Source of the DNA: Candidatus Nomurabacteria bacterium
GTDB taxonomy: Bacteria; Patescibacteriota; Patescibacteriia; HK-STAS-PATE-3
NCBI GenBank assembly: GCA_023898465.1
Contig: CP060223.1
Coordinates: 96,001-160,000, forward strand
DNA: 64,000 bases
Direction: 5' to 3'
Each line of letters begins with the position of its first letter. Positions within the stretch are counted from its first letter, which is position 1. Shown in pieces: positions 769 through 57,759 of the stretch. Both the position numbers and the translations under genes were made by a program. A model generated the notes under the pieces. It searched no databases, was not told the origin of the DNA, and worked only from the letters and a program-made list of their open reading frames with translations.

Positions 769-861
769 GGAATGAGTGCGAGACCCGTACTCTGAACGTT
801 GACAATTGAACGTATCAGGACTGGTTCCTGCATACGACGAGATAAACTTGGAGGTTTCCGT

Positions 862-2085
862 ATGCGCTGTTTGACCATGGCGTTGTGCCTTTGGCTCATC
901 TTCGTGGCCAATGCGGCGCATGCAGGTGAGTATCAGAATCTCCGACCCGGTCCGCCGGTGTTGGAGCTGGGTGCGTTTTTCGCATCAACCTTTCCCGAAG
1001 CTCTACCACAGCTGCCAGCTGGCACGGTGGTAGCACACTTCCCGTGTCCGGTGCCGGCGACATTCGTGTTTGCCGATCGGAGTCTCCGCACCTACTCACT
1101 TCCGAGTGAGGCAAAGGTGGTGGCGACGGAGCTGCGTCGGGACGATGGTGGAGCGTACTACCAGTTGCTCTATCTCCTCTCGAATAAGCAGGCGAGCTAC
1201 GCGGAGCGATTCGCGTATCCGATCTGGCTGAATAGCGATCCGGTCTACGTCCCCAACAACACCAAACTCTTGGTATTGGAACGTGGTCCCGAGCAAGCGA
1301 CGGTTGTCACTTCTGCTCCTGTGACTGCGACACCGCAGCAGCAGGGTGAAGCGATCAAGACGACGCCGGTGGTGAGAAACACGCCCGTGTCCTCTGCGCC
1401 ATCGACTGGACGGGTTGAGGGTGAGCACATCATCCATCACCCCTTCATTCGCGGGCAGCTTGATTTGAGGACGGAGTTCCTCGGTGTGAAACCCGAGAAC
1501 ATCTTCACTCATCAAGTGATTCCATCGCTTTGGCTGAACCAACACCTTGGTTTGACCGGACGTTGGGAGCGGCACGAAGCGAAGGATCTCGATCCATCGC
1601 AGGGCTGGGGAGTCGGGCTCTGTTACCGGACAGCTCCTATACATCGATTGTCGGTCGAGTACGCTCGATTGACATTTGGTGAGATGAGTTCGTCCGGGCA
1701 AAGCATTCAGCTCGTGCATTTCGAATCCAGGCTACAAACCTGGTTCCTGCATCACGAGTTGGAAGCAGAGCAGCGGGATAACGACGCGAAGGAAGTTTGG
1801 ACTCGACTACGGTCGGGGCTTGCTTTCCAAGTCGGCTATCGTAGCCGGCTGCAGATGGGCGGAGAGTTAGCTAACCTGAACTACGAACTCGTAGCACAGG
1901 ACGGCTACTACTACGTGTCTGCACTTGGGACGCGCTTCAATCGATCTCACTACGGAGCATTTGCCAGCTTGGATACCCATCTGGGTGATCACTTCCCACT
2001 ACGACTTCTGGTCGGCGGCGGGAAGGGCAGTGTTCCAGAATGGAACTACATCAATGCCGAGCTGAGACTCGGAGTTGATTTCTGA
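862..2085 (+). CDS. Exported protein with C-terminal beta-barrel-like domain ending in Phe (barrel paralog 1)
   Basis: I moved the start to ATG 862 (GGAGG 7 nt upstream), which gives the signal peptide MRCLTMALCLWLIFVANAAHA. An N-terminal domain of about 150 aa is followed by a T/P/S-rich linker and about 220 aa ending ...LLVGGGKGSVPEWNYINAELRLGVDF. It is homologous to 4011..5207. Confidence 0.7.
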   Translation: MRCLTMALCLWLIFVANAAHAGEYQNLRPGPPVLELGAFFASTFPEALPQLPAGTVVAHFPCPVPATFVFADRSLRTYSLPSEAKVVATELRRDDGGAYYQLLYLLSNKQASYAERFAYPIWLNSDPVYVPNNTKLLVLERGPEQATVVTSAPVTATPQQQGEAIKTTPVVRNTPVSSAPSTGRVEGEHIIHHPFIRGQLDLRTEFLGVKPENIFTHQVIPSLWLNQHLGLTGRWERHEAKDLDPSQGWGVGLCYRTAPIHRLSVEYARLTFGEMSSSGQSIQLVHFESRLQTWFLHHELEAEQRDNDAKEVWTRLRSGLAFQVGYRSRLQMGGELANLNYELVAQDGYYYVSALGTRFNRSHYGAFASLDTHLGDHFPLRLLVGGGKGSVPEWNYINAELRLGVDF

Positions 2086-2335
2086 TGTACGAATCCTGGC
2101 CACTTGGTCAGTACTCATAACTCGTCGGGTGGTCAGGAGATCCGTAAGGATTTCTACAAAAGGACCTAAGGGTCCGCGACCTGTGCCGAACGCACACGGA
2201 GGACAACATGCGAAAGCGTGCTCCGCCGACTATCTGATGAGCTTGTGTAACTGACCATGCCCCAATCAACTTGTTTGGGGCTAGGGATTAACCTGCCCCG
2301 ACAACAAAAAATTGGGGCAAGCCAAGGAGGAAGCC

Positions 2336-3625
2336 TTGTTCAAGCTTCGCATCAGCGCGATCTTCGCGCTTCTCATCCTTCTGGGTGCCGGTCTCTATGG
2401 CTGCGCTCAGGAGCCCATCGTGTTCCAGCCCGATCAGGATGTGCCGACCGATCAGCTGCCGGGCGATGGCACAGCCACGCTCAGTCTGCAGATCGGCGGC
2501 GTACCGGCCCAGCACAATGGAGGCGCTTCGAGTGCTTTCATGGTGACCAATACGGTGCAGGTGATCGGCAACATCTTCCTCACCGGTGACCGACTGGACA
2601 CCGAGTGGAAGATGCAGAACTGGAGCAGCGGCGATGTCCAAATCCAGACCATGAACGGTCGTTGGTATTCGGTCGCTCCTTCGGTCGACGGCAACGTCCA
2701 GATCACCAACTTCCTCATCAACGACATCCAGCCGCAGCATTTCGTGCAGCTGGATGAGATGAAGGGGATCTTCGCCCAGGTCAAGCTGTTGCCGGATTCG
2801 TCTGGCTTCCAGTTGTATCAGCTCGAAGACAACCGGGATCAGCTGATGACGGTGCACTACCGAGTCTACGATCCTGCCCCGGCTGACTTCCAGGGACTCC
2901 AGATCGTGGGAACTTCCACGAACTGGAATCAGATGTATCCGGAGGCGATCTACAGCTCCGACTACGGTATCTGGGAGTGGTGGGGTCCGGCGTTGAAGGC
3001 GAGCGGCAACAAGGTCGCTTTCCGGATTCGCGGAAGTGGGGCTCTGCCGACCTCGTATTTGATCACTGCCCAAGGCGAAGTGAACGGTACGCCGGTTGGT
3101 GAAGAGGTCCAGCTCGACTGTACGGAGTTGGTGGAGAACGTGAATACGTACTTCGCCAGCACGACCTGGTTCACCGACCGCGGTTGGTTGGCTGGGAAGC
3201 GAGTCTACCGACTCATCATCCACGAAGATGGTGGTATCGAACAGGGATGCGGAGGCATCCCGATTCAGACGACCATCTCGATCACGAACAACCGCATTCC
3301 GCAGGATCACCACCTGATGTGTGTCTACGACGGCTACAACGACAATCAGCCGTTCGAGATTCCTCGGGTGAGCGGCAAGTGGGAAACCACGCAGATCACG
3401 CTCCATTCTGGTCCGGCGGCTCTGTCGGTCTGGGATACGAGTGACGGAGACAAGCCGATCATCACCACGGTGAAGATCGGCAGCCAGGAAGTGAAGCACC
3501 TCGAAGTGTTTCAGGATCCTGGTTCGGAGCCGACGGTTCACTTCACCTTCGTCCTTGGCGAGGGTCCGACCCTGCAACAGGGGACGGACAATCGCACTGG
3601 TACGATCGGAGGAGAGAACTACTAA
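2336..3625 (+). CDS. Lipoprotein, unknown family (lipoprotein paralog 1)
   Basis: The ORF-track start is TTG 2312. The in-frame TTG at 2336 has AAGGAGG (2324-2330) 5 nt upstream and gives FKLRISAIFALLILLGAGLYG|C (lipobox L-Y-G-C). The segment LQIVGTSTNWNQMYPE...FRIRG loosely recalls E-set/CBM-type glycan-binding domains (unverified). The C-terminus ...QGTDNRTGTIGGENY resembles that of 5222..6385. Confidence 0.7.
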   Translation: MFKLRISAIFALLILLGAGLYGCAQEPIVFQPDQDVPTDQLPGDGTATLSLQIGGVPAQHNGGASSAFMVTNTVQVIGNIFLTGDRLDTEWKMQNWSSGDVQIQTMNGRWYSVAPSVDGNVQITNFLINDIQPQHFVQLDEMKGIFAQVKLLPDSSGFQLYQLEDNRDQLMTVHYRVYDPAPADFQGLQIVGTSTNWNQMYPEAIYSSDYGIWEWWGPALKASGNKVAFRIRGSGALPTSYLITAQGEVNGTPVGEEVQLDCTELVENVNTYFASTTWFTDRGWLAGKRVYRLIIHEDGGIEQGCGGIPIQTTISITNNRIPQDHHLMCVYDGYNDNQPFEIPRVSGKWETTQITLHSGPAALSVWDTSDGDKPIITTVKIGSQEVKHLEVFQDPGSEPTVHFTFVLGEGPTLQQGTDNRTGTIGGENY

Positions 3626-3662
3626 TCGCCAGCCCTGGGAACGCTGACGATTGCACATTCTT

Positions 3663-3712
3663 GCCCCGCCCGCTACAACACTTTGTGTTGAAGCGCGGCG
3701 GGGCTTTCTTTT
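3663..3712 (+). terminator. Rho-independent terminator (island junction 1)
   Basis: The GC stem GCCCCGCCCGCT ... AGCGCGGCGGGGC is followed by TTTCTTTT. Confidence 0.8.
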
Positions 3713-3781
3713 ACCTTGGCAGGATGGAAATGTAACTAGTCTTCAAGTTCTGATGTTTGTTGAAGCAATGTTTCGTAGGGC

Positions 3782-3811
3782 TTGACAAAATAGCACTTTT
3801 CCTGCTAAAGT
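3782..3811 (+). promoter_or_regulatory. Sigma70-like promoter (TTGACA-18-TAAAGT)
   Basis: cTTGACAAAATAGCAC... lies 70 nt after the terminator. It has the same cTTGACAAAAT opening as the promoter at 7944. Confidence 0.5.
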
Positions 3812-4010
3812 TCGCCGTTAACCAATGCGTAAAACCATCTAAAAAACGAACATTTTTACCACAACGACCTTAGTCGTTTGTGCTACTTATGGACATGAAT
3901 GGCTTGAGAAATGCCTAGCATTCCTCAACCGATTCTGGACCGGAAGTACTGCAGTAATTGTCATTCTTTGACAATTGAATTCAGAAGTCATTCTCACAGA
4001 GGAGGGTCTC

Positions 4011-5207
4011 ATGCGGACCTGGTATGTGGTTCTTGCGCTACTGGCGCTCGTCTCCTTTGGGTCCGCTCGGGCCCAGGTCATCGAAATCCCGATCGACTAC
4101 GTCGCGACGGATTCGGTGATTGCGAACTGGCCGCATCTCAACATCGGGGGCAACCCGGTGTACAAGAGCGGCTACCCGGCTGATTCCTTGGCAGTACATG
4201 CTGCTCGGGACGGCTGGTTCAAGACGACCTTCAACTTTCCCGTCGGGATCTACTGTCTCGATAAGGATGGGAAGATCATCAAGGGACGTGTCGAACCCGG
4301 ACAAACCATGAAGAATGGTGCCCGGGCCGATACGCTGATCGTGTCTATTCTAGCTGAGACGCCGGAGCAGACGCTGTATCAGATCCACGTTATTCAGGCG
4401 TGCGGTAACCCCGTGCTCTGGTCAGGCGTCGGTGTGTTGAAAGCACCGAAGCCGACTGGCCCACTGCCGCCGCCAACCCTGACTGTTCCGAAGCCCCCAG
4501 CACCACCTCCCATTGCGGAGACGGAGCCGCCGATCGTAGTAGAGCCTGAAAAACACTTCAGGCTACCGATCGATGGTTGGGCTGGAGTGGCAGGAAGTAA
4601 GTCACTCGAGTCCAAGGCTTGGTCGCTCTTCGAGGGCGTCTACATCGACTTTCCGTTGATCGTGGACAAGCTCACGTTCAAGTTTGGGGCGGCAACGTCT
4701 CAGGCAAACTACGAGAAGCTCCGTGGTCGGACGAGTTACCGAGGTGTTGGCGGCGATATGAGTCGCTGGCAAGTCGGCCTCTTCTACCGGCCTTGGGACA
4801 ACATCCAGGTTACCGGCCTGATTGGTCAGCAGTATGACCATAAGGCTGGCGACTGGCAGGATGGCGTCCAGCTGGAAGGAGTGCTGGGTTTCCCCATCGG
4901 TCGCTGGTGGAACGATGAGGATGTCAGCTACGGCACTACGACCAAAGCACTTTGGTTCCGCACTCGACATGCCTACAAGCTGTCGGGTGAAGGAATGCAT
5001 TGGTGGTCGATCGGCGGCGAGTTTGTCTATGACTCGTTCATGGACAACGATGGTCGATTCTACACTTCGCGCGTTCACGTATTTGGGAAGCGAGAGTTTC
5101 CCGGATTCTGGAATCGCGAGGCTGTCTTCATCTTCGGTGGCGGAAGAGGGAGTAAAGACGAGGCTTGGGGCCTCATAGCAGAACTAGGGCAGCGGCTCTG
5201 GTTCTAG
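4011..5207 (+). CDS. Exported protein with C-terminal beta-barrel-like domain ending in Phe (barrel paralog 2)
   Basis: ATG 4011 follows AGGAGG. The signal peptide is MRTWYVVLALLALVSFGSARA. A Pro-rich linker (PKPTGPLPPPTLTVPKPPAPPP) precedes a C-terminus ending ...FIFGGGRGSKDEAWGLIAELGQRLWF, which aligns with the C-terminus of 862..2085. Confidence 0.7.
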   Translation: MRTWYVVLALLALVSFGSARAQVIEIPIDYVATDSVIANWPHLNIGGNPVYKSGYPADSLAVHAARDGWFKTTFNFPVGIYCLDKDGKIIKGRVEPGQTMKNGARADTLIVSILAETPEQTLYQIHVIQACGNPVLWSGVGVLKAPKPTGPLPPPTLTVPKPPAPPPIAETEPPIVVEPEKHFRLPIDGWAGVAGSKSLESKAWSLFEGVYIDFPLIVDKLTFKFGAATSQANYEKLRGRTSYRGVGGDMSRWQVGLFYRPWDNIQVTGLIGQQYDHKAGDWQDGVQLEGVLGFPIGRWWNDEDVSYGTTTKALWFRTRHAYKLSGEGMHWWSIGGEFVYDSFMDNDGRFYTSRVHVFGKREFPGFWNREAVFIFGGGRGSKDEAWGLIAELGQRLWF

Positions 5208-5221
5208 AAGGGAGATTCCTG

Positions 5222-6385
5222 ATGCGTTTTCTCCGTTTCATGGCCGCTGCGCTGTTGCTGCTCGGTGCCTTCGGGTGCCAGAAGCTCCCCAGCGAGCCGA
5301 TCGACACCGGTGGCAGTCAGCCGCCGCAGGAGTACAACGGACCTGAGTCTGGTCTCGCGCTCAACTTCGAGCGTGGCGCCGGACAATACGAATTCGTTTC
5401 CGACATGTTCATCCATCAGGGTGGCGTGACGGATTGGGCGACTGTAACAGTCAACCCGGATAACTTCTTCCTCACCACCTACGCTGGACACTGGTATAGC
5501 GACATGCTGACCAGGGACGGTGTGCCGGTGCTGGGAGACTACACTCTGGCCGGTTCGACTCCGTCCAACTACTGGATGGATGAGAACCGCGGTGTTTTCG
5601 CGAGCCACATGGTTCTCGTCAGCGACGCTGACAGTGCCTGGGTCTGGCAGTGGCCCTCCAATGCCAGCCAGTTGGTCGACCTCGACATCGAGGTGCTCAA
5701 CTGGTCATCGGCAACGGATCTTGGCGTGGTCGGTACGCCGACGTGTTACGTCGTGCACCCGGCCATGTTGAACCACTTGCATGACAACGTCTACGGACGC
5801 TCGCTACGCCTCCTGCCCGGTGATGCCAAAATCGCTGTGATGGATATGTACGAGCGAGTTGGTCTGGGTGATGCAGTCACGGTCCGTATCAACGGCACCG
5901 AGCTGGTCGCCTACGTCGATGACTTCACGCATGACAACCAGCCGACGGTACATCGTTACTTCCGCTTTCACGTGAACGCGGATGGGACGGTGAGCTCGAT
6001 CGGTACTGAGAACCGATTCTCGTATGGGAACACGGTCTCGGTCAGCAATTCCAATATCGATCCCAGCGCTACGGTGTATCTCAACGGCACAGGCCTCACC
6101 AACGGTGAGATGATGCCGATGACCTATGTCGGCAGCTGGACCTGGCAGCTCACCGGTCTCACGACCTGGGTGGGCGAGCAGGATTTGAGGGTGAGTATGG
6201 AAGACGGGACTGGTGTGTTTCGTACCGTTCGCTTGAACGGAACGGAGTTGCACCACCTGGCTGCCGTGCCGCTCGACCCGGATCCTCCGATCCAGGTCTT
6301 CCGATGCACGCCCATGCATGACCACACGGTGATGCAGGGCGAGGACAACCGGGCCGCTGACATCGGCATGGAGACCGGCGGATGA
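5222..6385 (+). CDS. Lipoprotein, unknown family (lipoprotein paralog 2)
   Basis: ATG 5222 has GGGAG upstream. The signal is MRFLRFMAAALLLLGAFG|C (lipobox). The C-terminus ...MQGEDNRAADIGMETGG resembles that of 2336..3625. Confidence 0.7.
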   Translation: MRFLRFMAAALLLLGAFGCQKLPSEPIDTGGSQPPQEYNGPESGLALNFERGAGQYEFVSDMFIHQGGVTDWATVTVNPDNFFLTTYAGHWYSDMLTRDGVPVLGDYTLAGSTPSNYWMDENRGVFASHMVLVSDADSAWVWQWPSNASQLVDLDIEVLNWSSATDLGVVGTPTCYVVHPAMLNHLHDNVYGRSLRLLPGDAKIAVMDMYERVGLGDAVTVRINGTELVAYVDDFTHDNQPTVHRYFRFHVNADGTVSSIGTENRFSYGNTVSVSNSNIDPSATVYLNGTGLTNGEMMPMTYVGSWTWQLTGLTTWVGEQDLRVSMEDGTGVFRTVRLNGTELHHLAAVPLDPDPPIQVFRCTPMHDHTVMQGEDNRAADIGMETGG

Positions 6386-7869
6386 GCGAAGAAGGTGATG
6401 CGACAAGTCGTGAGGTGCCTCCCCAAGTAAGAGAGGTACTTCGCCAAATGCAACGAGTCGCGAAGAGAGATCGCAAAAAGAAGGCGAAGCATCGAGCCCG
6501 CAGAGAGGAACGGAAAAAACAGGCAAAGGCAAGAGTGAAAGCTCGAACGGGTGAGCAGTCAACAGGTTCTCCAAGGAAAGGAGATGAACCTCGTCGTCCT
6601 GTTCCGCCGCCTCAGCCTGCACCAAGTGCTTCGCCGTCCTACGCATCTCTACTGGGAGATAAGCTTGGGGGAATTCCTCAAGTAAGACGAAATCCGAAGA
6701 GAGCAGAAACAAACCTGGGAGGCTCGCCGAGCTTCCCCCAAGATGAGGAGGGTCATGTAATGCCCGAGGTGTCCATGCGCGAAGAAGGAGGATCGAGGAA
6801 GCTTTTGATTGCCACTGTGGCGATCTTGTGCGTCCTCTTGGTCGGGGTGCTGATCTACACGCATCCCTGGAGTCCTCAGCAAGGTCTGACGGAGACCGAG
6901 GTGTCGGATATGATCAGGGAGTTCGCTGATCAGATGCCGGCTCCGGTCGCTGAAATCCCCGATGACGTGGTACGCAAGGGTGACCTTGCTTCGATGCAGC
7001 CGGCGGCGATCACTCTCAGCGCTTTCGACGAGACCTATCTCGATACGCTGTGGGCGACGGTCAAGGATCCGGTGACCGGGAAGATCGACTCGACGATGGT
7101 CGTGAAGACCCGGACGAGGAATCCCATCACTGATTTGCAGAAGGACGTGAAGAGTACCAATGCCGAGGCTCGTGCAGCCAAGGTTGCGGCACGGAATGCG
7201 GAGAAGCGTCTCAAGGAGACGCCGACCCAATTCGCCGTGACCGTGCCTTCGACTTCCACATCGACTTCGCTTCACCAGCCTGGTGGAGTGCAGTTGGGTG
7301 GTACCACGACCACGACGGCGCCTGTGCAGATGACGACTCGAACGAGTACGCAAGCCGGGCTGGTGGCTGGTACGATCGGAGGTGGTTCGCCGCCCCCGCC
7401 GCCGGCTAGCAACGTCGCTGTGTCCATGACTACCACGATGGTTCCGGCCGGTGAACAGGTGATGGGTGGGGACGGCTTGATGAAGCAGGGTCCGGCCGTT
7501 GCCTTTGTCTACAACGGTCAGACCTACGTTCGTCGGGATCTGGTGCAGCGCAACAAGTACGGCGACCCGATCAACCCCAGTCGAGCTGACCAGAACTTCT
7601 ACGTGATGGCCGGCGAGCAGGGGATGAACTGGAAGCTCGTCAATCCGGCCAAGCAGAAGATGACGGTCCAGGGCGACTATTTGGTCTGGCCTGGCGTGAT
7701 CAAAGGTCCTTTCCAGGTCGGCTGGGTGGATCCGAACGACCCGGCCTACATGCCTGAAAGTGGCGTAGTCTGGGCTCCGATCGCTGAGTTCTACTCCGGC
7801 TACGACGGGACCTTCTGTCGTGACCCCGACTATCAGTTGAGGGCTGTGGCGATCCAGCAGATGCCGTAG
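6382..7869 (+). CDS. Single-pass membrane protein with highly basic N-terminus and C-terminal domain shared with 8047..9225
   Basis: The ATG overlaps the upstream stop (ATGA). The N-terminal ~130 aa are Lys/Arg/Pro-rich (KKKAKHRARREERKKQAKARVKAR). There is one TM segment, LLIATVAILCVLLVGVLIY. A conserved C-terminal domain spans 7465-7866. Confidence 0.65.
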   Translation: MSEEGDATSREVPPQVREVLRQMQRVAKRDRKKKAKHRARREERKKQAKARVKARTGEQSTGSPRKGDEPRRPVPPPQPAPSASPSYASLLGDKLGGIPQVRRNPKRAETNLGGSPSFPQDEEGHVMPEVSMREEGGSRKLLIATVAILCVLLVGVLIYTHPWSPQQGLTETEVSDMIREFADQMPAPVAEIPDDVVRKGDLASMQPAAITLSAFDETYLDTLWATVKDPVTGKIDSTMVVKTRTRNPITDLQKDVKSTNAEARAAKVAARNAEKRLKETPTQFAVTVPSTSTSTSLHQPGGVQLGGTTTTTAPVQMTTRTSTQAGLVAGTIGGGSPPPPPASNVAVSMTTTMVPAGEQVMGGDGLMKQGPAVAFVYNGQTYVRRDLVQRNKYGDPINPSRADQNFYVMAGEQGMNWKLVNPAKQKMTVQGDYLVWPGVIKGPFQVGWVDPNDPAYMPESGVVWAPIAEFYSGYDGTFCRDPDYQLRAVAIQQMP

Positions 7870-7897
7870 TCCGCGACTGCAACGTTCTTTACTTCAA

Positions 7898-7936
7898 CCC
7901 CCGCTATATCTACGGATGTAGCGGGGCTTTCTTTTT
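7898..7936 (+). terminator. Rho-independent terminator (island junction 2)
   Basis: The stem CCCCCGCTA ... TAGCGGGG is followed by CTTTCTTTTT. Confidence 0.8.
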
Positions 7937-7943
7937 ACTATGC

Positions 7944-7972
7944 TTGACAAAATGCCAAAAATAGCATACTAT
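7944..7972 (+). promoter_or_regulatory. Sigma70-like promoter (TTGACA-17-TACTAT)
   Basis: cTTGACAAAATGCC... sits immediately after the terminator. Confidence 0.55.
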
Positions 7973-8046
7973 AGCCGGTTCTTTTTGCACCTCACAATCT
8001 AGTTACACAAGCGAGAGACACTACACATCCCAACCGGGAGGACTAC

Positions 8047-9225
8047 ATGCTCCAACGTTTCTTTGCGTGGTCTTTGCTGGCGCTCTTCGCCTTCGGCTGT
8101 GCCGGAGGTAGTGCCACGCTGAAGCAGCATCAGCAGCCCGTCGGGCAGGTCTACGTGGGCGACTGCGTGCCGTCGGATGGCATTCATCCGACTGGCTACC
8201 TTCGCCTGACCAAGCCGCCGGAGGACTTCAACTCGATGCTGTCGATGTGGCACGCTGTTCAGGCCGAGGGTTCATCCGAGCCCTCGAAGATCGAGGTCGA
8301 CTACATCCGGGTCTACGCCCACGTAGCCGGCCGCGATTCACTGCTCGACAGCGACGAGTACAACGACATGATCGGGGACGGAGGTCTCTATCTTCGTCAT
8401 CCCTCGTGGTTCTACAACGATGACCATACGAGTCTGCCCTGCGAGTTCGACATGGTCAACGGTTACTTGGTCTTGCGACCGAGCGACTACCCGGATCGAG
8501 TCTTTCACTGGTGGAATTCCTACCATCCAGCGGAGGATGTCTGGCGTGTCACTATTCCGGCCGGTGCTACCAACTGCTGGGCAGAGACTCGGATTCGGAT
8601 TACGGGTCCAGCCTATGTCCAGGGCGGCATTGACTACTGGCGTTCACTCACTGCTCCGTACGGCGGCGTCGAAGTGAACAACCGGGAAGCCTGCATGTCC
8701 AACTGGACTTGCTCGGCTGATCCGGGTTGGCAGACCATCGTGGTTGGTAAGGACAAGCCGCAGGGCGACAGCGCTGTGGTCGATGCCGATGAGAACGGGA
8801 AACCGAAAGTCGTCCAGGCTCCGGTCTACGATCCTTTCGAGAGCAAGGCCGACGGTCTCCTCAAGAAAGGCGCTGCTGTCTGTTTTGTACAAGACGGACG
8901 CACCTACTTCCCGAAGGAGATCGTGGCGACGAACAAGTACAGCGATCCGGCTCGCCCCAAGAATGGCAAGTACTACTTGCTGGGCGGGGTGAAGCCATGG
9001 GCTATCGCCGGCGACGATCAAGAGCTCCGGGAAAACGGGGATTACCTCTACTATCCCGGCGTGGTCGACAAGGTGTGTCAGGTGGGCTGGGAGGATCCGG
9101 CCGACGCTTCGGCCGATCCGTCCGGAACCGTATGGAGCGCTTCAGCGGAACTTTTCTCGGGTCGCCCGGGATCAGTTTCGAAGAACGGTCAGTACGGCTA
9201 CCTGCCAGTCAATCTCTCCAACTAG
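8047..9225 (+). CDS. Lipoprotein with jelly-roll-like N-domain and shared C-terminal domain
   Basis: ATG 8047 has GGGAGG 5 nt upstream. The signal is MLQRFFAWSLLALFAFG|C (lipobox). ...IEVDYIRVY... recalls lectin/GH16-type jelly rolls (unverified). The C-terminal domain at 8848-9222 is homologous to 7465-7866. Confidence 0.7.
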   Translation: MLQRFFAWSLLALFAFGCAGGSATLKQHQQPVGQVYVGDCVPSDGIHPTGYLRLTKPPEDFNSMLSMWHAVQAEGSSEPSKIEVDYIRVYAHVAGRDSLLDSDEYNDMIGDGGLYLRHPSWFYNDDHTSLPCEFDMVNGYLVLRPSDYPDRVFHWWNSYHPAEDVWRVTIPAGATNCWAETRIRITGPAYVQGGIDYWRSLTAPYGGVEVNNREACMSNWTCSADPGWQTIVVGKDKPQGDSAVVDADENGKPKVVQAPVYDPFESKADGLLKKGAAVCFVQDGRTYFPKEIVATNKYSDPARPKNGKYYLLGGVKPWAIAGDDQELRENGDYLYYPGVVDKVCQVGWEDPADASADPSGTVWSASAELFSGRPGSVSKNGQYGYLPVNLSN

Positions 9226-9240: not shown

Positions 9241-9274
9241 CCCGGTGCATGCAATGCGTGCGCCGGGTTTTCTT
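9241..9274 (+). terminator. Rho-independent terminator (island right edge)
   Basis: The stem CCCGGTGCATGC / GCGTGCGCCGGG (with G-U pairs) is followed by TTTTCTT. Confidence 0.7.
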
Positions 9275-9275
9275 A

Positions 9276-9304
9276 TTGACCATGGGCAATATTTTTGCTA
9301 TAGT
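9276..9304 (+). promoter_or_regulatory. Sigma70-like promoter (TTGACC-17-TATAGT)
   Basis: The promoter directly abuts the terminator and lies 30 nt upstream of ATG 9335. Confidence 0.55.
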
Positions 9305-9334: not shown

Positions 9335-11107
9335 ATGTTACGCAATATTCTTGTCATTCTCGGACTCGCCATTTCACTCACCAGCTTCACGCCAAAGCAG
9401 GAGAGTCGCGATGGCGTGTATGCGTTTACCACGCCTCCTTTAAGTATTGGTCAAGGAGTGGTGGTGACAAATGATGGCATTGTGATTGGCGATGGCGTGA
9501 CTGATTCCCGGCAAGGAATACAGGAGCTGCTTAGTGGTGATGACTTGGAACATTTTCTTGACCAAAGCTCTCAGCAGTTTGATGCCGTAGAGCTGCGTAT
9601 CTGGACATGGTTCCTGGGTCAAAACGATTTTACTATTGGCACGGTGAATAATTTCCTTGCCCGTGCTCATGCCCACGGCTTGCAAGTGTACTTAAATACT
9701 TGGGAATATCCTGGCACACATCCCGACCTTCTGCCTGCTGAGTATCAGGCATATAAACTTGCTGACACCGGACAACGCGTGCCGGCCCTAGTGAATGATG
9801 GACAAATCAGCGCGCAGCACATTGATAAAGCAAACCCCGCTGCACTGGAATGGATGAGTGGGCAACTGCGGAGTGCGCTGACTTCTTTTGACGTTTTCGA
9901 TGGATACCTCATTGTTGAGGATAGGGTTTCCGATTGGGTGCATGGGTCTTTCCCACAGTATGTACGTTATTGGGATTCACCGACCTATTCCGATGCAGCG
10001 CTTGATTCATTTCAACATTATCTCCTACTGCATGGTCAGGATGCAACACAGCGATTCCCAGTGGATCGTCCGGAGTTAGTTTCTCAATTCACCCAGTATG
10101 TTCCTTCAGCCCCAGAAAGTGCTTTATGGAAGTATTGGTATCAATGGCGCTTTGAACTTTTTGCTGACTATGTGGAGAGTCTGAGTAATGCGGTGAAGTC
10201 AGTGCAAAGGGTGCCAGTGCTTTACATGCCTTGGCAACGTGTGGTGGATGAATTTGATTACGCCTACGCTGATGATTGGTCAGCCAATCGTTGGGATGTT
10301 GGATACGGTCCGGGCAATCCCGAGAATGCCATCTTCGGCGTCTCGCTTCACACCCTGGCAAAACGCGGATCAATTGATGCCTACGTGCATGAATTTGGAG
10401 AGGATGGTACGCATGAGCTCTGGCCAATGTCTTTTAATGCGCTGCAGTTAGAAAAAGCCAAAATTGCTTTGTCAGATTCTTATGTTACCCTAGGCAGCTT
10501 TATTCAATTTTTTAATTACGAAGGTAGAGAAATAGTTTCCCCTGAACTACTTCAAGATGCCTTAGCCATCGGACGGCAAAACGAGGCAAAGATTTTTGTA
10601 GCTTACGATGTTGCCACACTGTATGATCGTTCAGGTCGCTATGATGCACATACCTCAGCGCTTTGGCAGCAAGCAAGAACACATGCATATGCCATTGATG
10701 AAGAGGAAATCCGAAACGCAAGTCAGCTAGCGCCAGCGCAGGTTTTTGCTCGAAAATTACCTGAACAGATTCCAGAAGGAGTGGCCGCCTGGACTGCCGA
10801 TGATGGGTATGTGTATGTGCGGACCGAGGCTCTGCCCGGTAACGGACCATACTATGTCGTATACGATCACTGGAATGCACCACTACTTGATGCGCAGCAC
10901 CTTATGGAATACTATCCAGAGCATGGTTTAGTCGCTATACATGCTGATGGGTTAAAAGGCGCTGCTTTTCAAATCATTACTCCGGGACCGCAGGGTAGCG
11001 TCGCGTGGTCAGAAATTCGTGAACAGCTTTGTGAGCTGGGGTATCAAGGGATCGTATGTAGCCCAAATAGTTGGCTTTATCAACCAGTGGGGCTTCATTC
11101 CATGTAG
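9335..11107 (+). CDS. Exported or anchored 590-aa protein, family not recognised
   Basis: This is a long ORF in host-like composition. The N-terminus is hydrophobic (MLRNILVILGLAISLTS). It is possibly glycosidase-like, but I could not verify that. Confidence 0.6.
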   Translation: MLRNILVILGLAISLTSFTPKQESRDGVYAFTTPPLSIGQGVVVTNDGIVIGDGVTDSRQGIQELLSGDDLEHFLDQSSQQFDAVELRIWTWFLGQNDFTIGTVNNFLARAHAHGLQVYLNTWEYPGTHPDLLPAEYQAYKLADTGQRVPALVNDGQISAQHIDKANPAALEWMSGQLRSALTSFDVFDGYLIVEDRVSDWVHGSFPQYVRYWDSPTYSDAALDSFQHYLLLHGQDATQRFPVDRPELVSQFTQYVPSAPESALWKYWYQWRFELFADYVESLSNAVKSVQRVPVLYMPWQRVVDEFDYAYADDWSANRWDVGYGPGNPENAIFGVSLHTLAKRGSIDAYVHEFGEDGTHELWPMSFNALQLEKAKIALSDSYVTLGSFIQFFNYEGREIVSPELLQDALAIGRQNEAKIFVAYDVATLYDRSGRYDAHTSALWQQARTHAYAIDEEEIRNASQLAPAQVFARKLPEQIPEGVAAWTADDGYVYVRTEALPGNGPYYVVYDHWNAPLLDAQHLMEYYPEHGLVAIHADGLKGAAFQIITPGPQGSVAWSEIREQLCELGYQGIVCSPNSWLYQPVGLHSM

Positions 11108-11135
11108 GGAGTTCTTTGTCAGAGGAGGAGTGAAT

Positions 11136-11600
11136 ATGCAGTGGAGGTTGTGGATCTACGTGTTGGCTTGCGTACTGTGCGCATCGCAGTCTGCGTACGG
11201 TCAGTCTGAGCAATTCCAGCCAATGTACAGCATAGCGCCAGAGTATCCACTTTCAGCGTGGATTGCTGGTGAGTCTGGGTCGGTGATGGTGGGAATGCAG
11301 ATTGACCCGGTCGGCCGTGTGGAGGAGGTCTGGGTTCAGTCTTCAACAAGCTCGTTGTTTGAGCGGTATGCGCTCGAGGCGGCGAAGCAGTGGGTTTTTG
11401 TACCGATCATGCCCATGGTGGATCTGATCGACGCGGTGGATGGCGTTATGGTCTTGCGTAGAATTCCGGAGCTTGAAACAGCGAGTTACCTGGAAACACA
11501 TCCGGGAATCATTGACAGTCTCGTCTACGAGTGGACGGAAAAACAGGACCAACCGTCCCCGGTCCGTAGCGTCAGTATCCCTTTCAATTTCAACCACTAA
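11136..11600 (+). CDS. TonB C-terminal-domain-like exported protein
   Basis: I moved the start to ATG 11136 (AGAGGAGGAG upstream). The signal peptide is MQWRLWIYVLACVLCASQSAYG. PEYPLSAWIAGESGSVMVGMQIDPVGRVEEVWVQSSTSSLFERYALEAAKQWVFVP matches the TonB_C pattern (P.YP..A...G.eG.V.v.f.id..G.v......SS....ld.aAl.A...w.F.P). Confidence 0.6.
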   Translation: MQWRLWIYVLACVLCASQSAYGQSEQFQPMYSIAPEYPLSAWIAGESGSVMVGMQIDPVGRVEEVWVQSSTSSLFERYALEAAKQWVFVPIMPMVDLIDAVDGVMVLRRIPELETASYLETHPGIIDSLVYEWTEKQDQPSPVRSVSIPFNFNH

Positions 11601-46558: not shown

Positions 46559-46918
46559 ATGGACAGCGCAACTCTTGAACAAATCAAAGCCAAATTATTG
46601 CAACAAAAGGAGCAGCTACAATCTGAGTTACAGCGAGAATCTTCGCCAACTCCGGATGAGGTAGATGGTCGCACCGCATCTTTCCCTGACTATGGCGATC
46701 ATGATGATGAAAACGCCTCTGAGGTAGCAGATTATGCGACCAATATGCAGGTGGAGGAAAACCGGGAGGAATTGCTTGCTTCGATAGAAAAAAGCTTGAC
46801 CGAAATTGAGCAGGGTAGCTATGGGAAGTGTCAGAGCTGCGGCAAAGAAATTGCAGCTGAACGGCTCTTAGCAAATCCAACCGCGCAAACGTGTCTGAGC
46901 TGCGCCAATCAAGCTTAA
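46559..46918 (+). CDS. DksA/TraR-family C4 zinc-finger protein
   Basis: I moved the start to ATG 46559. A coiled-coil N-terminal region is followed by CQSCGKEIAAERLLANPTAQTCLSC. Confidence 0.75.
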   Translation: MDSATLEQIKAKLLQQKEQLQSELQRESSPTPDEVDGRTASFPDYGDHDDENASEVADYATNMQVEENREELLASIEKSLTEIEQGSYGKCQSCGKEIAAERLLANPTAQTCLSCANQA

Positions 46919-47376
46919 GTCTCTTTAGCAGCACACATCGGTTTAGCATAGTACTAGGCCTTTGCCTTTTGGTGCTTGATCGTTTTTTTAAAGCCCTAGT
47001 GCTGCATGGGTTTACTTGGCCAAACCCTGATGCTTGGTTAAGTATTGGATATTATCCAAATCCAAATTTTTTTGCAGATACTAATTTAGCTTACCCGCTC
47101 ATCATTGGTATTACCACAGTTGTTCTCTTGTTCGTCATTGGACTATTTGTGTATGGCATACGCTATCGTTATCCAGGGATTGTGGCAGCTGGTGTGTGGA
47201 TTATTCTGGGAGGAATGAGCAATTTTTGGGATCGACTCAAGTATCAGCACGTGCTTGATTATGTTGGTGTCGCACATTGGCCGGTATTTAACATTGCCGA
47301 TATCCTTATTTTTATCGGCGTGATTTGGTATGGTGTGATTATCCTACGTAGTTGGAAAAGTCAGGGGATGCGTTGA
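46891..47376 (+). CDS. lspA: Lipoprotein signal peptidase (signal peptidase II)
   Basis: GGMSNFWDRL...LDYV...WPVFNIADILIFIGV matches the LspA motifs. The start is GTG and overlaps the upstream gene by 28 nt, so it is uncertain. Confidence 0.8.
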   Translation: MSELRQSSLSLFSSTHRFSIVLGLCLLVLDRFFKALVLHGFTWPNPDAWLSIGYYPNPNFFADTNLAYPLIIGITTVVLLFVIGLFVYGIRYRYPGIVAAGVWIILGGMSNFWDRLKYQHVLDYVGVAHWPVFNIADILIFIGVIWYGVIILRSWKSQGMR

Positions 47377-50613: not shown

Positions 50614-53600
50614 ATGAGTATGAAAAACGTTGTACCGGAAGGGGAATACAACCCAGCAAGTATTGAAGCAAAATGGCAGGAGCACTGGAACAAAAAACCA
50701 GATCAGGCTAAGGATTTTGCGCATGATCCAAAGCGCTATCTTCTCATTGAATTTCCTTACCCCTCAGGTGATGGACTGCATGTGGGGCATGTGCGAAGCT
50801 ATGCCGCTCTCGATGTGTTGGCGCGTTATTCTCGCTTAAAGGGTTTTAATGTGCTTTACCCCATCGGCTGGGATGCTTTTGGTTTACCCACCGAGAATTA
50901 TGCGATTAAGACTGGCGTACACCCACGTGTTGCGACTGATAAGAATATTGCCACCTTTCGCCGCCAGCTTAAGGCGCTAGGCCTTTCATTTGATTGGTCT
51001 CGAGAAGTGGATACAACAGATCCAAAATACTATCGATGGACACAGTGGATTTTTTTGCAGTTCTATAAGGCAGGCTTAGCCTATCAGGCAGAGATTCCTA
51101 TTAACTGGTGTCCAAAAGATAAAATCGGTTTGGCCAATGAAGAAGTGGTTGATGGCAAATGCGAACGCTGCGGCACTGAAGTAACGCGTAAAATGCAAAA
51201 GCAGTGGATGTTAAAAATCACCGCCTATGCAGATCGCTTACTACGTGATCTCGATACAGTTGAGTACGTTGAAAAAATTAAAACACAGCAGAAAAACTGG
51301 ATAGGTAAGAGCGAGGGTGCTGAAATATCTTTTCAAATAGCTAGTAAGGAGTCGCAAAAACCTCGCTTCGTACTTCTCCATGGTTTTCAGGGCTCAGCTA
51401 AAGGTAACTTTTTCCCATGGCTAAAAGATGAGTTGGTCGCAAAGGGCTATGAGGTGGAAGTACCTGAATTACCAAACAGCGCTCATCCGACTGAAGAGGA
51501 ACAGGTAAGTTATGTACTTGAACATTGTCGCTTTGATGAAAACACCATCGTGTTTGGTCATTCGCTTGGTACAGTCGTGGCCATGAAGGTTATAGAAAAG
51601 CTTCCCACAAAAGTAGCTGGCTTGGTTATGGCCGGTGGATTTACCCAGGCTGATTTTTCTGATCACGATCGACCATTCCGCGATACCTTTACATGGAATT
51701 TTGATTTCCAGGCGATTCGAGATAAAGCAGGTTTTATAAAAGTGCTACATGACGTGCATGATGATGCCGTGCCCGAGGGAGCTGGAGAGGCTTTAGCAAA
51801 AGCGCTCGAAGTGCCGTGCTACAAGGTGACCGCAAATGAAGAGCATTTCTGCGCAAAGCAAGAGCCTTATCTATTAGCGCATCTCATGCCAAACACACTT
51901 TTGGTTGGTACGCAAAATCAGGCAAAGGTGGAAATGCTTCGACGAGCATTGGCCCCTTACCCAAATATTCACCTCATCAGTTTAAGTGATATTGGTAAGG
52001 TCGATGATCAGGCTTTAGTAGAGGGCGATGACTTTCGTGCTAATGCAAAAATGAAAGCAGATTTTTATCACCGAGCCACAGGTTTACCAACCATATCGAC
52101 GGATCATATTCTTTGGATAGAGAAATGGCCTGAGGATAATGGCTTCATTACGCATATTCGCAAATTAGCAAATCCGAAATCTGGACGAGCAACAGATGAA
52201 GAACTAGCAGAATGGATAAAAAAATTTATCGATAAAAATGGTGAGTCGCGTACAGCCTTTCATTATGCTATTGGTTATGCCGATGAGAAGGGAGTGCAGG
52301 GCTTTGTGAGTATTCAGCGCGAATACATGTTGAAGGCTAATCCGGCTAAAGCACGATGGGAAGGCTATGCGGTCGGTGCATTTTTGCGTGACCCCGTGAC
52401 TGATGCGTATCGAGAAGAGATGCCCGCAGAGATCGCTTTTGATCGCTTCTTCGCCACAGTGCGCAATGAAATTGTGCCGCAGGTTTTCGATATGAGCACC
52501 TTGACGGTCTTTACCACACGACCCGATACCATCTTCGGTGTCACGTATATGGTTGTAGCCCCTGAACATGAACTCCTTGCCAAGTATCAATCACACATTA
52601 CAAATTGGGATGAAGTTCAAAAGTATGTGCGAGAGGCCGCCAAGAAATCCGATATGGAGCGGACCGAGTTGGCCAAAGAAAAAAGTGGCGTTGAGCTCAA
52701 AGGTATTCAGGCAGTAAATCCGGCAAATGGTGAAGTAATCCCGATTTGGGTAGCTGACTATGTGCTGAGTTCTTATGGCACCGGAGCGATAATGGCTGTG
52801 CCGGCGCATGATCAGCGAGACAATGAGTTTGCAAAAAAGTACTCCCTGCAAATAAGAGAAGTAGTAAGAGGTTTTAATCGTGTAGGAGAGAAAAAAGATA
52901 TTGTATATTCTGGCGAGGGGGTCCTAGTAAATTCTCAGGACTTTGATGGAGAAAAAAGCGAAGACGCAAAAAAGAACATTGTAAGGTGGTTAGAAGAAAA
53001 AGGACTCGGTCATTCAGCAGTCAATTTTAAACTTCGCGACTGGGTATTTTCACGTCAGCACTACTGGGGCGAGCCGATTCCGATTATTCATTGTCCTAAG
53101 TGCGGAGCTGTTCCAGTGCCGGAGAAAGACCTACCAGTGGAATTGCCTCATGTAGAAAAATACCAACCCACTAATACTGGGGCTTCACCATTAGCTGCGA
53201 TCGAGGATTGGGTGCAGGTGAAATGTCCGAAGTGTAAGGGCGAAGCGAGTCGAGAAACCGACACCATGCCGAATTGGGCCGGGAGCTCGTGGTATTTCCT
53301 GCGCTATTCGGATCCGCACAATAGTAAAGCCTTTGCTGATAAGAAAAAGCTAGAGTATTGGCTGCCGGTGGATATTTACAATGGTGGCAATGAGCACACC
53401 ACCCTCCATTTACTCTACTCGCGTTTCTGGCATAAGTTTTTATTTGATCAGGGCTTGGTACCAACTCCAGAACCATACCAGCATCGTCATTCGCATGGGA
53501 TTGTGTTAGCTGAGGATAATCGCAAGATGTCAAAGAGTTGGGGGAACGTGGTCAATCCGGATGATTATGTGCAGGAGTACGGTGCAGATAGCGTGCGCAT

Positions 53601-54198
53601 GTACGAGTTATTTATGGGACCATTTGAGGATATGATTCCGTGGTCAACCAAGGGTATCGTGGGTGTGCATCGCTTCTTAAATCGTGTGTGGGAACTTTAT
53701 CGTAAAGTTACAGAAGAGACGGCCCAAGTAACAGAAGAGAGGGACATTCACAAAGCTGTGAAAAAGGTTGGGGAAGACCTCGAGGCTTTTCGTTTCAACA
53801 CCGCGGTGAGCACTTTGATGGAATATTTTAATCACTTCCGTGATGAAGTGCAGCAGGGTAGGCTCGATAAAGAAGCAGCAGAAAAGTTTCTCGTGATCCT
53901 TTTCCCATTTGCGCCGCACCTTGCCTCAGAGCTCTGGGAGCAGTTAGGAAAGAAGAGCGATATTCGCGAACAATCATGGCCAAACTTTGATCCAAACGCT
54001 TTACAAGCGGAGACCGTCACGATCGGTGTGCAGATTAATGGCAAAGTGCGCGCCTCCATAAGCCTTTCACCAGAAGCAAGCGAAGCAGAAGCGCTGGAGC
54101 TAGCCTTAGCCGAAGAAAATATTCAACGCTATCTTCAAAAGGGACAGCCCAAGAAGGTTATTTATCGTGCAGGAAAAATTCTCAATCTGATCGCCTGA
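50614..54198 (+). CDS. leuS: Leucyl-tRNA synthetase with ~387-aa two-domain insertion before CP1
   Basis: HIGH (HVGH), KMSKS, the Zn-knuckle CPKD...CERCG, the CP1 start TTRPDT and AHDQRDNEFA are all present. At 1194 aa it is far longer than E. coli LeuRS (860 aa). Confidence 0.95.
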   Translation: MSMKNVVPEGEYNPASIEAKWQEHWNKKPDQAKDFAHDPKRYLLIEFPYPSGDGLHVGHVRSYAALDVLARYSRLKGFNVLYPIGWDAFGLPTENYAIKTGVHPRVATDKNIATFRRQLKALGLSFDWSREVDTTDPKYYRWTQWIFLQFYKAGLAYQAEIPINWCPKDKIGLANEEVVDGKCERCGTEVTRKMQKQWMLKITAYADRLLRDLDTVEYVEKIKTQQKNWIGKSEGAEISFQIASKESQKPRFVLLHGFQGSAKGNFFPWLKDELVAKGYEVEVPELPNSAHPTEEEQVSYVLEHCRFDENTIVFGHSLGTVVAMKVIEKLPTKVAGLVMAGGFTQADFSDHDRPFRDTFTWNFDFQAIRDKAGFIKVLHDVHDDAVPEGAGEALAKALEVPCYKVTANEEHFCAKQEPYLLAHLMPNTLLVGTQNQAKVEMLRRALAPYPNIHLISLSDIGKVDDQALVEGDDFRANAKMKADFYHRATGLPTISTDHILWIEKWPEDNGFITHIRKLANPKSGRATDEELAEWIKKFIDKNGESRTAFHYAIGYADEKGVQGFVSIQREYMLKANPAKARWEGYAVGAFLRDPVTDAYREEMPAEIAFDRFFATVRNEIVPQVFDMSTLTVFTTRPDTIFGVTYMVVAPEHELLAKYQSHITNWDEVQKYVREAAKKSDMERTELAKEKSGVELKGIQAVNPANGEVIPIWVADYVLSSYGTGAIMAVPAHDQRDNEFAKKYSLQIREVVRGFNRVGEKKDIVYSGEGVLVNSQDFDGEKSEDAKKNIVRWLEEKGLGHSAVNFKLRDWVFSRQHYWGEPIPIIHCPKCGAVPVPEKDLPVELPHVEKYQPTNTGASPLAAIEDWVQVKCPKCKGEASRETDTMPNWAGSSWYFLRYSDPHNSKAFADKKKLEYWLPVDIYNGGNEHTTLHLLYSRFWHKFLFDQGLVPTPEPYQHRHSHGIVLAEDNRKMSKSWGNVVNPDDYVQEYGADSVRMYELFMGPFEDMIPWSTKGIVGVHRFLNRVWELYRKVTEETAQVTEERDIHKAVKKVGEDLEAFRFNTAVSTLMEYFNHFRDEVQQGRLDKEAAEKFLVILFPFAPHLASELWEQLGKKSDIREQSWPNFDPNALQAETVTIGVQINGKVRASISLSPEASEAEALELALAEENIQRYLQKGQPKKVIYRAGKILNLIA

Positions 54199-56886: not shown

Positions 56887-57759
56887 TTGGCTTTTCAGGG
56901 GGAACAACCAGGGGAGAATGACAATACAAAGCTTTTCAATAATGCCCCAGAGCAAGGTAATCAGGTTCCGCCTGAGCAAAGTGGCTCGCGGGGCTTTTTT
57001 ATTGCGTTAATTTCCTTTGGCGCAGTTGGGCTTTTGCTCGGAATTGTGAGCTTGGCAAAGAATATTCAGTCACCTTTTGTACCAAATGCCAACCTCATTG
57101 CGGTGCAGCAGGACACCAATCAAGAAAACATCTCTGATTTGCAGCAAAGAGACACGGATGGAGATGGGTTAAGTGATTACGAAGAACTTTATCAATACAA
57201 CACTAGCCCGTATTTAGCTGATTCTGACTCGGATACCATTGATGATAAGAAAGAAATCGAGAGTGGAAACGATCCGAATTGTCCAAGTGGCCAGGATTGT
57301 ACCGGATTAGGCGTAAATACAAACACGAGTACAGTTGACGATGCATTGGGGCTTACTAATAGCTCCACCAATACATCCGCGACAAATACCAGTACGAGCA
57401 CGAGTGCGGTTGATATGGCACAGTTGCGTGAAGTGTTAAAGGCCTCGGGTGCTCCTGCCTACGTCGTGGATTCAACCGATGATGCTACTTTGCTTGAGCT
57501 TTACAACGAATTAGTAGCTGAGCAGGGTGGTGACTCGCTTGATACCAACTCGACAGATACAAATGCGAGTAACACGTCGACTGTTGATGACGCTACCACC
57601 TTACAACTTCTGCAAAGCTTATCAGCCAGCGAGATACGCGCACTTCTCATTCAAAGTGGCGTTGATCAATCATTAATCGATCAAGTAGACGATTCTGAGC
57701 TGCAGCAAATATTCCTTGATGCAGTGCAATCCGAGTTTTCCTCTGACTCCTCATCATGA
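56887..57759 (+). CDS. Membrane-anchored protein with thrombospondin-type-3-like Ca-binding repeats and S/T/N-rich tail
   Basis: The start is TTG (uncertain). The TM segment is FFIALISFGAVGLLLGIVSL. DTDGDGLSDYEE and DSDSDTIDDKKE are TSP3-like aspartate repeats. Confidence 0.6.
   Translation: MAFQGEQPGENDNTKLFNNAPEQGNQVPPEQSGSRGFFIALISFGAVGLLLGIVSLAKNIQSPFVPNANLIAVQQDTNQENISDLQQRDTDGDGLSDYEELYQYNTSPYLADSDSDTIDDKKEIESGNDPNCPSGQDCTGLGVNTNTSTVDDALGLTNSSTNTSATNTSTSTSAVDMAQLREVLKASGAPAYVVDSTDDATLLELYNELVAEQGGDSLDTNSTDTNASNTSTVDDATTLQLLQSLSASEIRALLIQSGVDQSLIDQVDDSELQQIFLDAVQSEFSSDSSS

Follow-up and report, generated by a model that had tools for sequence, protein, structure and literature searches.

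A rare all-β domain shared by a membrane-anchored protein and a putative lipoprotein in a conserved gene cassette of a Candidatus Nomurabacteria bacterium

Two consecutive genes in a 64,000-nucleotide stretch of a Candidatus Nomurabacteria genome (contig CP060223.1, positions 96,001 to 160,000, forward strand; hereafter the window, whose own numbering is used throughout) encode proteins that end in the same domain of ~125 residues. This domain represents a genuine, very rare, and previously undescribed all-β family. One of its carriers, o6382, is anchored by a transmembrane (TM) segment, while the other, o8047, is a putative lipoprotein (LP), and together they close a gene cassette seen in just a few uncultured groundwater bacteria. 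In our favored interpretation, to which we assign a probability of roughly 0.4, a common target in the cell envelope, most likely a glycan, is bound by both copies, and the domain is a periplasmic docking or ligand-binding module. The carriers and their domains are as follows:

6382..7869, + strand: TM-type carrier gene o6382, an open reading frame (ORF) of 495 aa whose ATG start overlaps the stop of the upstream gene
7471..7866, + strand: domain copy 1 (TM type), predicted β-sandwich (BLASTP E = 1e-21; alignment A2; AlphaFold model; ratio of nonsynonymous to synonymous substitutions, dN/dS, 0.14)
8047..9225, + strand: LP-type carrier gene o8047, an ORF of 392 aa
8851..9222, + strand: domain copy 2 (LP type), predicted β-sandwich (BLASTP; alignment A2; dN/dS 0.015)

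Two unrelated carriers share one C-terminal domain

A first-pass annotation of the window had described two ORFs with homologous C-termini, and both exist as described. BLASTP of the full proteins aligns residues 364–493 of o6382 with residues 269–392 of o8047 at 38% identity over 130 aa (55% positives, E = 1e-21). This is the single significant alignment between them: every segment outside the domain has E > 1, so the N-terminal parts are unrelated, and the domain is indeed shared, colinear, and C-terminal on otherwise unrelated carriers. The boundaries proposed earlier, 7465–7866 and 8848–9222, are right to within two codons, and the conserved DGLxKxG motif begins at 7471 in the o6382 copy and 8851 in the o8047 copy. 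Searching the whole window by tblastn with either domain finds only these two copies; a third match at 61050–61265, inside a giant Cys-rich protein, was rejected as chance (E = 0.1, not significant).

Both copies are under strong purifying selection when compared with the near-identical strain represented by contig L017. The ratio dN/dS is 0.026/0.181, or about 0.14, for the TM-type copy and 0.004/0.237, or about 0.015, for the LP-type copy.

A very rare family with a confident fold

A profile of the two copies, run exhaustively with HMMER against 1.84 billion representative proteins, returned 14 matches, two of which are repeat artifacts, leaving about 12 true members. Homologs lie on contigs L004–L006 (from a groundwater metagenome), L007, L015, and L017, and in two metagenome-assembled genomes (MAGs) of the GTDB collection, one represented by L008 and the other by L009 and L016. 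The L008 copy was first detected as a weak tblastn match, and two more very divergent copies, both in L016, were found through synteny alone; the cassette loci were reached via the better-conserved Wzz-like neighbor and via the X2 lipoprotein described below. Word-indexed searches of 5.8 billion proteins yielded zero matches with the two-copy alignment and three distant members, with no others, when a 12-sequence alignment was used. A scan of GTDB genomes by domain patterns gave no match. The domain had been called private, a description that does not hold, since the same TM + LP pair ends a syntenic cassette in other metagenomic lineages, although the family is very rare.

None of the searches assigns the domain to a recognized family. 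For the window proteins and their homologs, nothing covers the domain in Pfam or NCBIfam at E ≤ 0.1, or in PHROGs or PADLOC at E ≤ 0.01, and no PADLOC model of an anti-phage defense system matches. A single weak PHROGs match covers the coiled-coil part of the L008 TM-type protein rather than its domain. Searches of PDB sequences with the domain profiles gave best E values of 0.14 (profile A1) and 0.069 (profile A2), both to unrelated proteins. Individual candidate families fared no better. The OmpA-like domain (PF00691) has no Pfam match here, and the domain model is all-β, not α/β; TonB_C (PF03544/TIGR01352) matches neither o6382 nor o8047; and the type IX secretion sorting domain (TIGR04183/PF18962) has no NCBIfam or Pfam match, with two carriers in the window, one of them TM-anchored. 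A phage module was also considered and is ruled out by empty IMG/VR scans, the lack of a structural match in BFVD, and the absence of any PHROGs match over the domain. Within the cassette, hhalign finds no relation between the domain and the X1 and X2 lipoproteins, barrel B, or the N-terminal domain of o8047.

AlphaFold modeling of the TM-type copy predicts an all-β structure with a mean local confidence (pLDDT) of 92.3 and a predicted TM-score (pTM) of 0.85. The predicted fold is a β-sandwich, confident but generic. Residues conserved across the family (numbered on window positions 7444–7866) are T27, E32, W63, Q91, W94, W110, E115, and Y130, along with the aromatic Y28. The model weakly resembles carbohydrate-binding β-sandwiches, and starch- or glycogen-binding modules of the carbohydrate-binding module (CBM) families CBM48, CBM20, and CBM25-26 are among the closest known counterparts: GlgB (5gqu, 1m7x), the β-amylase starch-binding domain (1cqy), and AMPK β (1z0n). 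Modules of the CBM48 and CBM20 kind bind α-glucan through a surface platform of aromatic residues; the aromatic residues conserved here are Y28, W63, W94, W110, and Y130. Alignments A2 and A9, together with the confident model, define a family that could be deposited as a new domain of unknown function.

The transmembrane carrier

Apart from its domain, o6382 and its 3' flank contain these features:

6396..6715, + strand: N-terminal tail, putatively cytoplasmic and hypervariable, of basic character here, unalignable with L017 between flanks about 95% identical
6802..6858, + strand: predicted single TM segment LLIATVAILCVLLVGVLIY, residues 141–159, preceded by R/K residues (read from sequence)
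7042..7245, + strand: conserved juxtamembrane segment, coiled-coil-like helix, and PxQ(F/M)AVTV motif, common to TM-type orthologs
7357..7404, + strand: linker motif GLVAGTIGGGSPPPPP, a Gly run followed by a polyproline spacer, with counterparts in P0005 and P0006
7899..7936, + strand: terminator-like hairpin with a 12 bp stem plus T-run, 3' of the gene

The public gene call, P0001, begins at an internal methionine at 6760 (Met127) and yields 369 aa. The 125-codon tail upstream of Met127 is probably translated, because its frame is open in both the window and L017 despite unalignable DNA. The segment has a basic composition in the window (6396–6715) but an acidic one in L017 (2563–2880); the cytoplasmic tail may be hypervariable, or the segment may have been swapped.

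Following the tail, the TM segment at residues 141–159 agrees with the earlier description of an N-in, membrane-anchored carrier. The positive-inside rule would place the N-terminus in the cytoplasm and the C-terminus, with the domain, in the periplasm. The juxtamembrane segment and motif were compared by eye across o6382, P0005, L008, and L016, and residues 192–254 of o6382 match L016 by BLAST. Between the PxQ(F/M)AVTV motif and the GTIGGGSPPPPP spacer lies S/T-rich low-complexity sequence, and the domain follows the spacer. Counterparts of the linker are GTIGGSELPPPPPP in P0005 and GTIGGGPPPPPP in P0006. TM-type orthologs are encoded at L004:8706-9800, L007:8847-9797, L008:8080-9117, L016:4760-6175, and L017:2549-4057.

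The lipoprotein carrier

The second carrier follows a short intergenic region, and its features are these:

7944..7999, + strand: predicted sigma-70-like promoter TTGACA-17-TACTAT of the lipoprotein gene, followed by the box GCACCTCACAATC (7987–7999)
8047..8100, + strand: predicted signal peptide and lipobox A-F-G-C, with the lipidation site at Cys18 (read from sequence)
8140..8751, + strand: N-terminal β-rich domain of roughly 200 residues with the motifs HWWNS, WRVTIP, and ITGPAxVQxGxDYW (alignment A10)
9241..9277, + strand: terminator-like hairpin and T-run 3' of the gene, where the compositional island also ends

The assignment of o8047 as a lipoprotein, made in the first-pass annotation, is probable from its lipobox. 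Taking [LVI][ASTVI][GAS]C as canonical, AFGC18 is near-canonical, and the V-S-G-C of L004 and the V-A-G-C of the short L016 form are canonical. The L007 and L015 orthologs have a signal peptide and lack a canonical lipobox. Signal peptidase II (Lsp) is encoded in the window at 46891–47376. The N-terminal domain, whose motifs are strongly conserved, has no known relatives: it matches no PDB sequence and is unrelated to the X1 and X2 lipoproteins and to the shared domain, to which a short linker joins it. The full-length AlphaFold model of o8047 is β-rich with a pLDDT of just 51, a low confidence that leaves the jelly-roll-like fold proposed for this domain in the first-pass annotation tentative. 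LP-type orthologs are encoded at L004:10001-11158, L007:10001-11269, L015:1305-2075 (partial), and L017:4236-5414.

The lipoprotein gene is probably its own transcription unit, because a terminator-like hairpin lies upstream and is followed by a promoter partly conserved across loci and by the GCACCT box. CTTGACAAA is kept in L007 and L015. The box itself, GCACCT(G/C)A(A/C)AA, lies 3' of the predicted −10 element and is kept in all four aligned intergenic regions (window, L004, L007, and L015), while the remaining spacer has diverged; it could be an operator or an element of the 5' untranslated region. RNA structure in this untranslated region is not unusual (z = −0.02), and it has no Rfam match.

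A probable envelope cassette and a compositional island

The carriers are the last members of a cassette with the order pilin-like protein, protein resembling Wzz and polysaccharide co-polymerases (PCPs), barrel A, lipoprotein X1, barrel B, lipoprotein X2, TM-type carrier, and LP-type carrier. The traced loci share this order. In the window, the genes preceding the carriers are as follows, the last four being supported by synteny and by orthology in L004, L007, L008, L016, and L017:

18..728, + strand: Wzz/PCP-like two-TM protein o18, its 5' end cut by the window edge, directly upstream of the six-gene block
799-2085, + strand: barrel A (o799), resembling outer-membrane proteins (OMPs)
2312-3625, + strand: lipoprotein X1 (o2312)
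3975-5207, + strand: OMP-like barrel B (o3975)
5165-6385, + strand: lipoprotein X2 (o5165)

The pilin-like protein has 196 aa and TSP3-type Ca-binding repeats. Orthologs of o18 are 53–64% identical, and its profile matches are significant but both sub-threshold: TIGR01006 at E = 5.6e-8 (32.5 bits against a cut-off of 296) and GNVR at 17.3 bits against 27.7. Barrel orthologs have a signal peptide in 8/8 cases, a C-terminal Phe after xRLx in 7/8, and an alternating hydrophobic pattern, features by which outer-membrane β-barrels are recognized, and o799 and o3975 are therefore putative barrels with a predicted outer-membrane location. Neither matches a Pfam OMP family. X1 and X2 are paralogs. Apart from the sub-threshold Wzz-like matches, the cassette proteins have no Pfam, NCBIfam, or PDB-sequence relative; profiles of barrel B (A5), X1/X2, the LP N-terminal domain, and the downstream gene o9335 found no match among PDB sequences.

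Upstream of the cassette, a 148-aa protein resembling Host_attach/baeRF_family12 is encoded a few genes 5' in three loci (L004 345–791, L007 318–767, and L009 6929–7402), and a HAMP-containing membrane protein is likewise conserved in L007 and L009. Downstream, the small gene o11019 (11019–11600) lies just 3' of o9335, with an ORF that overlaps the end of o9335. It has the only TonB_C match in the island region (E = 3e-11), and its GC content at third codon positions (GC3) of 0.65 is atypically high.

The carrier genes had been placed in an island, and the codon statistics show a compositional one. GC3 is 0.61–0.76 in exactly six genes, o799 to o8047 (799–9225), against 0.40–0.51 in the Wzz-like o18 (0.44), o9335, and the other sampled host genes, with o11019 as the exception. 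The L016 cassette likewise has a GC content of 0.61 against 0.53 in its flanks, and L004 and L007 have about 0.6 throughout. A chimeric assembly was considered as the source of the GC jump at about 9250 and excluded: an o9335 homolog follows the cassette in L008, L016, and L017, and L016 additionally shares the genes after o9335, which encode a 129-aa protein and a flavodoxin. The block is a compositional island in a conserved locus, best explained by allele replacement from a GC-richer relative, because GC3 is high in the six genes, yet the locus is syntenic in L008 and L016. The arrangement also hints at joint function and joint transfer of the six genes.

Repeated origin or homogenization of the carrier pair

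The cassette occurs in six lineages, five of which have the TM + LP pair. The two carriers are its last genes in L004, L007, L015, L016, L017, and the window. In L008, the TM-type copy stands alone and the LP-type gene is absent; the same contig has an IS-type transposase of 296 aa on the minus strand between X1 and barrel B (4487–5377).

In a neighbor-joining tree of the domain, the LP copies from the window, L007, L017, and P0008 group in one clade (90% bootstrap support) apart from the TM copies, which indicates an old duplication. The two window copies, 37–38% identical, thus belong to different clades, one TM and one LP. The LP copy of L004, by contrast, nests with the TM copy of the same contig (97% bootstrap, 61% amino acid identity), and the underlying DNA (9393–9797 versus 10751–11155) is 73.6% identical over a gapless 311 nt, which indicates a gene-conversion tract between adjacent paralogs. 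L016 (4760–6751, MAG GCA_964637345.1) encodes a 471-aa TM-type protein and a 186-aa lipoprotein consisting of anchor, linker, and domain only. Its copies pair at 100% bootstrap, are at most 29% identical to all others, were missed by the profile search, and have both lost otherwise invariant residues such as W94. The TM + LP pair has thus been created or homogenized at least three times: by the old duplication, by conversion in L004, and as a separate pair in L016. Such repetition hints, with a clarity unusual for evolutionary evidence, that it is important to have a copy of the module at each membrane.

Distant members of the family (P0010, P0011, P0013, and P0014) have no cassette genes nearby. 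P0010 has 499 aa, P0014 consists of a TM segment, linker, and domain, and P0011, which lacks a signal peptide, comprises the domain by itself and is encoded beside a TraG/TrwB-like ATPase and recombinases. The P0011 locus (L002 789–5127; L003 4291–8629) is an integrative element; the ATPase has 1044 aa, the recombinases are a serine recombinase and a tyrosine integrase, and a membrane protein of 237 aa is encoded there as well.

Possible function of the shared domain

In the favored interpretation, the domain would be an autonomously folding periplasmic module that forms the business end of two tethered proteins. Copy 1 would hang from the inner membrane by way of the cytoplasmic tail, TM segment, coiled coil, and Gly/Pro-rich spacer, and copy 2 from a lipid anchor, with a second novel domain in between or, in one lineage, just a short linker. 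A single envelope target could then be recognized by both copies, each reaching it from its own side of the periplasm, and binding may place or link the two barrel + lipoprotein pairs whose genes lie just upstream. Action of the module within the periplasm from each of the two membranes is suggested because the tether of o6382 resembles those of TonB, TolA, and GspB, the lipoprotein resembles Pal, both carry the same domain, and barrel + lipoprotein pairs and a PCP-like gene are adjacent. A glycan is the preferred target because of the weak likeness to CBMs and the PCP neighbor; candidates would be the strands of peptidoglycan or else a polysaccharide that the Wzz-like protein encoded nearby helps to handle.

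Several observations weigh against this interpretation. The loss of W94 in both L016 copies counters a universally conserved ligand such as peptidoglycan, and the solitary TM-type copy in L008 means that the pair is not obligatory. The distant P0011 and P0014 occur outside any cassette, in mobile or defense-like neighborhoods, and P0011 has no signal peptide. The diderm status of the host is itself inferred.

Two other explanations, neither of them probable, are nearly as good as the favored one. The copies may bind each other: as a homotypic connector, the TM-tethered and lipoprotein-tethered domains would pair through sandwich edges or strands, bridging the periplasm and coupling the inner membrane to the barrel/lipoprotein complexes, much as LptC, LptA, and the N-terminal domain of LptD build a bridge from one fold. 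We regard this as possible though doubtful. It would fit the greater than expected likeness of copies within a genome (61% in L004 against 45–49% for orthologs), the joint loss of W94 in a pair united at 100% bootstrap, and the repeated generation or homogenization of the pair. At about 200 residues, the TM-type linker has sufficient length to cross a periplasm, and the short L016 lipoprotein carries the domain alone. However, the divergence of the window copies into separate clades means that ongoing co-homogenization is not needed, L008 does without a partner copy, and gene conversion between adjacent paralogs needs no functional explanation.

Alternatively, both carriers may dock on the same protein of the cassette, such as X1, X2, or either barrel through its soluble N-terminal domain, in the way that GspB and GspC both bind the secretin N0 domain and that TonB docks on barrels; we place similarly little weight on this proposal. 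Linkage of the carrier genes to the barrel/lipoprotein pairs is strict, and the carrier genes form one compositional block with them, set apart from the host-like o18 and o9335 in the window and from the flanks in L016. The TM-type architecture is TonB/GspB-like, and the fast divergence of the domain between lineages (25–49%) fits co-evolution with a protein partner. Against this, P0010, P0011, P0013, and P0014 occur without nearby cassette genes, and the domain has no sequence or profile relation to other cassette modules, the interaction being wholly conjectural.

The first-pass annotation had also raised a shared targeting role. A C-terminal sorting or secretion signal, read by export machinery for which the cassette barrels are conceivable candidates and perhaps then cleaved off, as in type IX cargo, would account for the domain lying at the very C-terminal end of carriers that are otherwise unrelated, for its small β-sandwich fold, and for the barrels encoded next door. 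A general targeting signal is nevertheless unlikely, and we consider this version of it very improbable: each genome has only one or two carriers, an N-terminal TM segment with a cytoplasmic tail ties one of these to the inner membrane, a poor fit to secreted cargo, the short L016 lipoprotein would be nothing except signal, and purifying selection is strongest on the domain. Finally, chance or compositional similarity, or a functionless pseudogenized duplicate, for which high regional GC content is the sole argument, is already refuted by the homology (E = 1e-21), the family search (orthologs in at least six lineages), the confident fold model, and selection (dN/dS 0.015–0.14).

Comparison with known envelope systems

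Sharing of one periplasmic module, for binding or docking, between carriers tethered to the inner and outer membranes is a known theme. The OmpA-like domain (PF00691), an α/β fold, occurs on the TM-anchored MotB, the lipoprotein Pal, and OmpA. As with MotB and Pal, one C-terminal, presumably periplasmic module is found here on a TM-anchored protein and a putative lipoprotein with flexible linkers, and the short L016 lipoprotein is laid out as Pal is, with anchor, linker, and domain. Unlike OmpA-like domains, the present family is predicted to be all-β rather than α/β, and the two have no sequence similarity.

In the Lpt bridge, LptC, LptA, and the N-terminal domain of LptD share one β-jellyroll, and LptD/LptE form a barrel–lipoprotein pair. 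The cassette is similar in presenting one fold on inner-membrane-anchored and putatively outer-membrane-associated components and in including barrel + lipoprotein pairs. It differs in that no Lpt protein is among the structural neighbors of the domain, no OstA or LptC Pfam match is found, and, unlike LptD, the cassette barrels are small (a barrel region of about 210 residues) with a soluble domain in front.

The layout of o6382, with a tail, one TM segment, a coiled-coil and Pro-rich spacer, and a small C-terminal globular domain, is like that of TonB, TolA, and GspB (OutB), whose terminal domains act at the cell wall or outer membrane. The C-terminal domain of TonB docks on barrels. Unlike in TonB, the C-terminal domain here is unrelated to TonB_C, and the TonB_C protein of the window, o11019, is a separate gene. 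No ExbBD, TolQR, or type II secretion system genes are found in the cassette, which also sets it apart from the TonB, Tol, and type II systems. In type II secretion, the homology region (HR) domain of GspB/OutB binds the secretin N0 domain, as does that of GspC, and competition of the OutB HR domain with its OutC counterpart has been examined (PMC9239104, also the source for the GspB layout). In type VI secretion, the β-sandwich outer-membrane lipoprotein TssJ is bound by the periplasmic C-terminus of the inner-membrane protein TssM (PMC3213119). The present pair would likewise set a lipid-anchored small β-sandwich opposite the periplasmic C-terminal domain of a putative inner-membrane partner within one gene cluster. 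However, TssJ and TssM have folds that differ from each other, TssJ is not among the matches to the domain, and no type VI genes are found here.

If the favored interpretation is correct, it adds a new domain family within a complete envelope gene block of which no component has been annotated, and it joins the few cases in which a single module faces the periplasm from either side, such as the OmpA-like domains of MotB and Pal or the Lpt jellyroll. The choice between glycan binding and protein docking is tractable for uncultured organisms, while the finding by itself answers no long-standing question. A broader and speculative proposal, which we hold to be a good deal short of even odds, is that the six-gene block is an unrecognized trans-envelope machine of uncultured diderm groundwater bacteria, in which the domain would connect the inner to the outer membrane through homotypic or common-target binding, with the block exchanged as a unit between lineages, a possibility raised by its foreign GC3 in the window.

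Other features of the window

Farther downstream, leucyl-tRNA synthetase (50614–54198, 1194 aa) has an α/β-hydrolase domain (Abhydrolase_1/6, Ser_hydrolase) inserted at about residues 250–450 of its catalytic domain. A 290-aa protein with a TSP3 Ca-binding repeat (56887–57759) precedes the giant Cys-rich protein, which has at least 2046 aa (57756–63896) and a secreted appearance.

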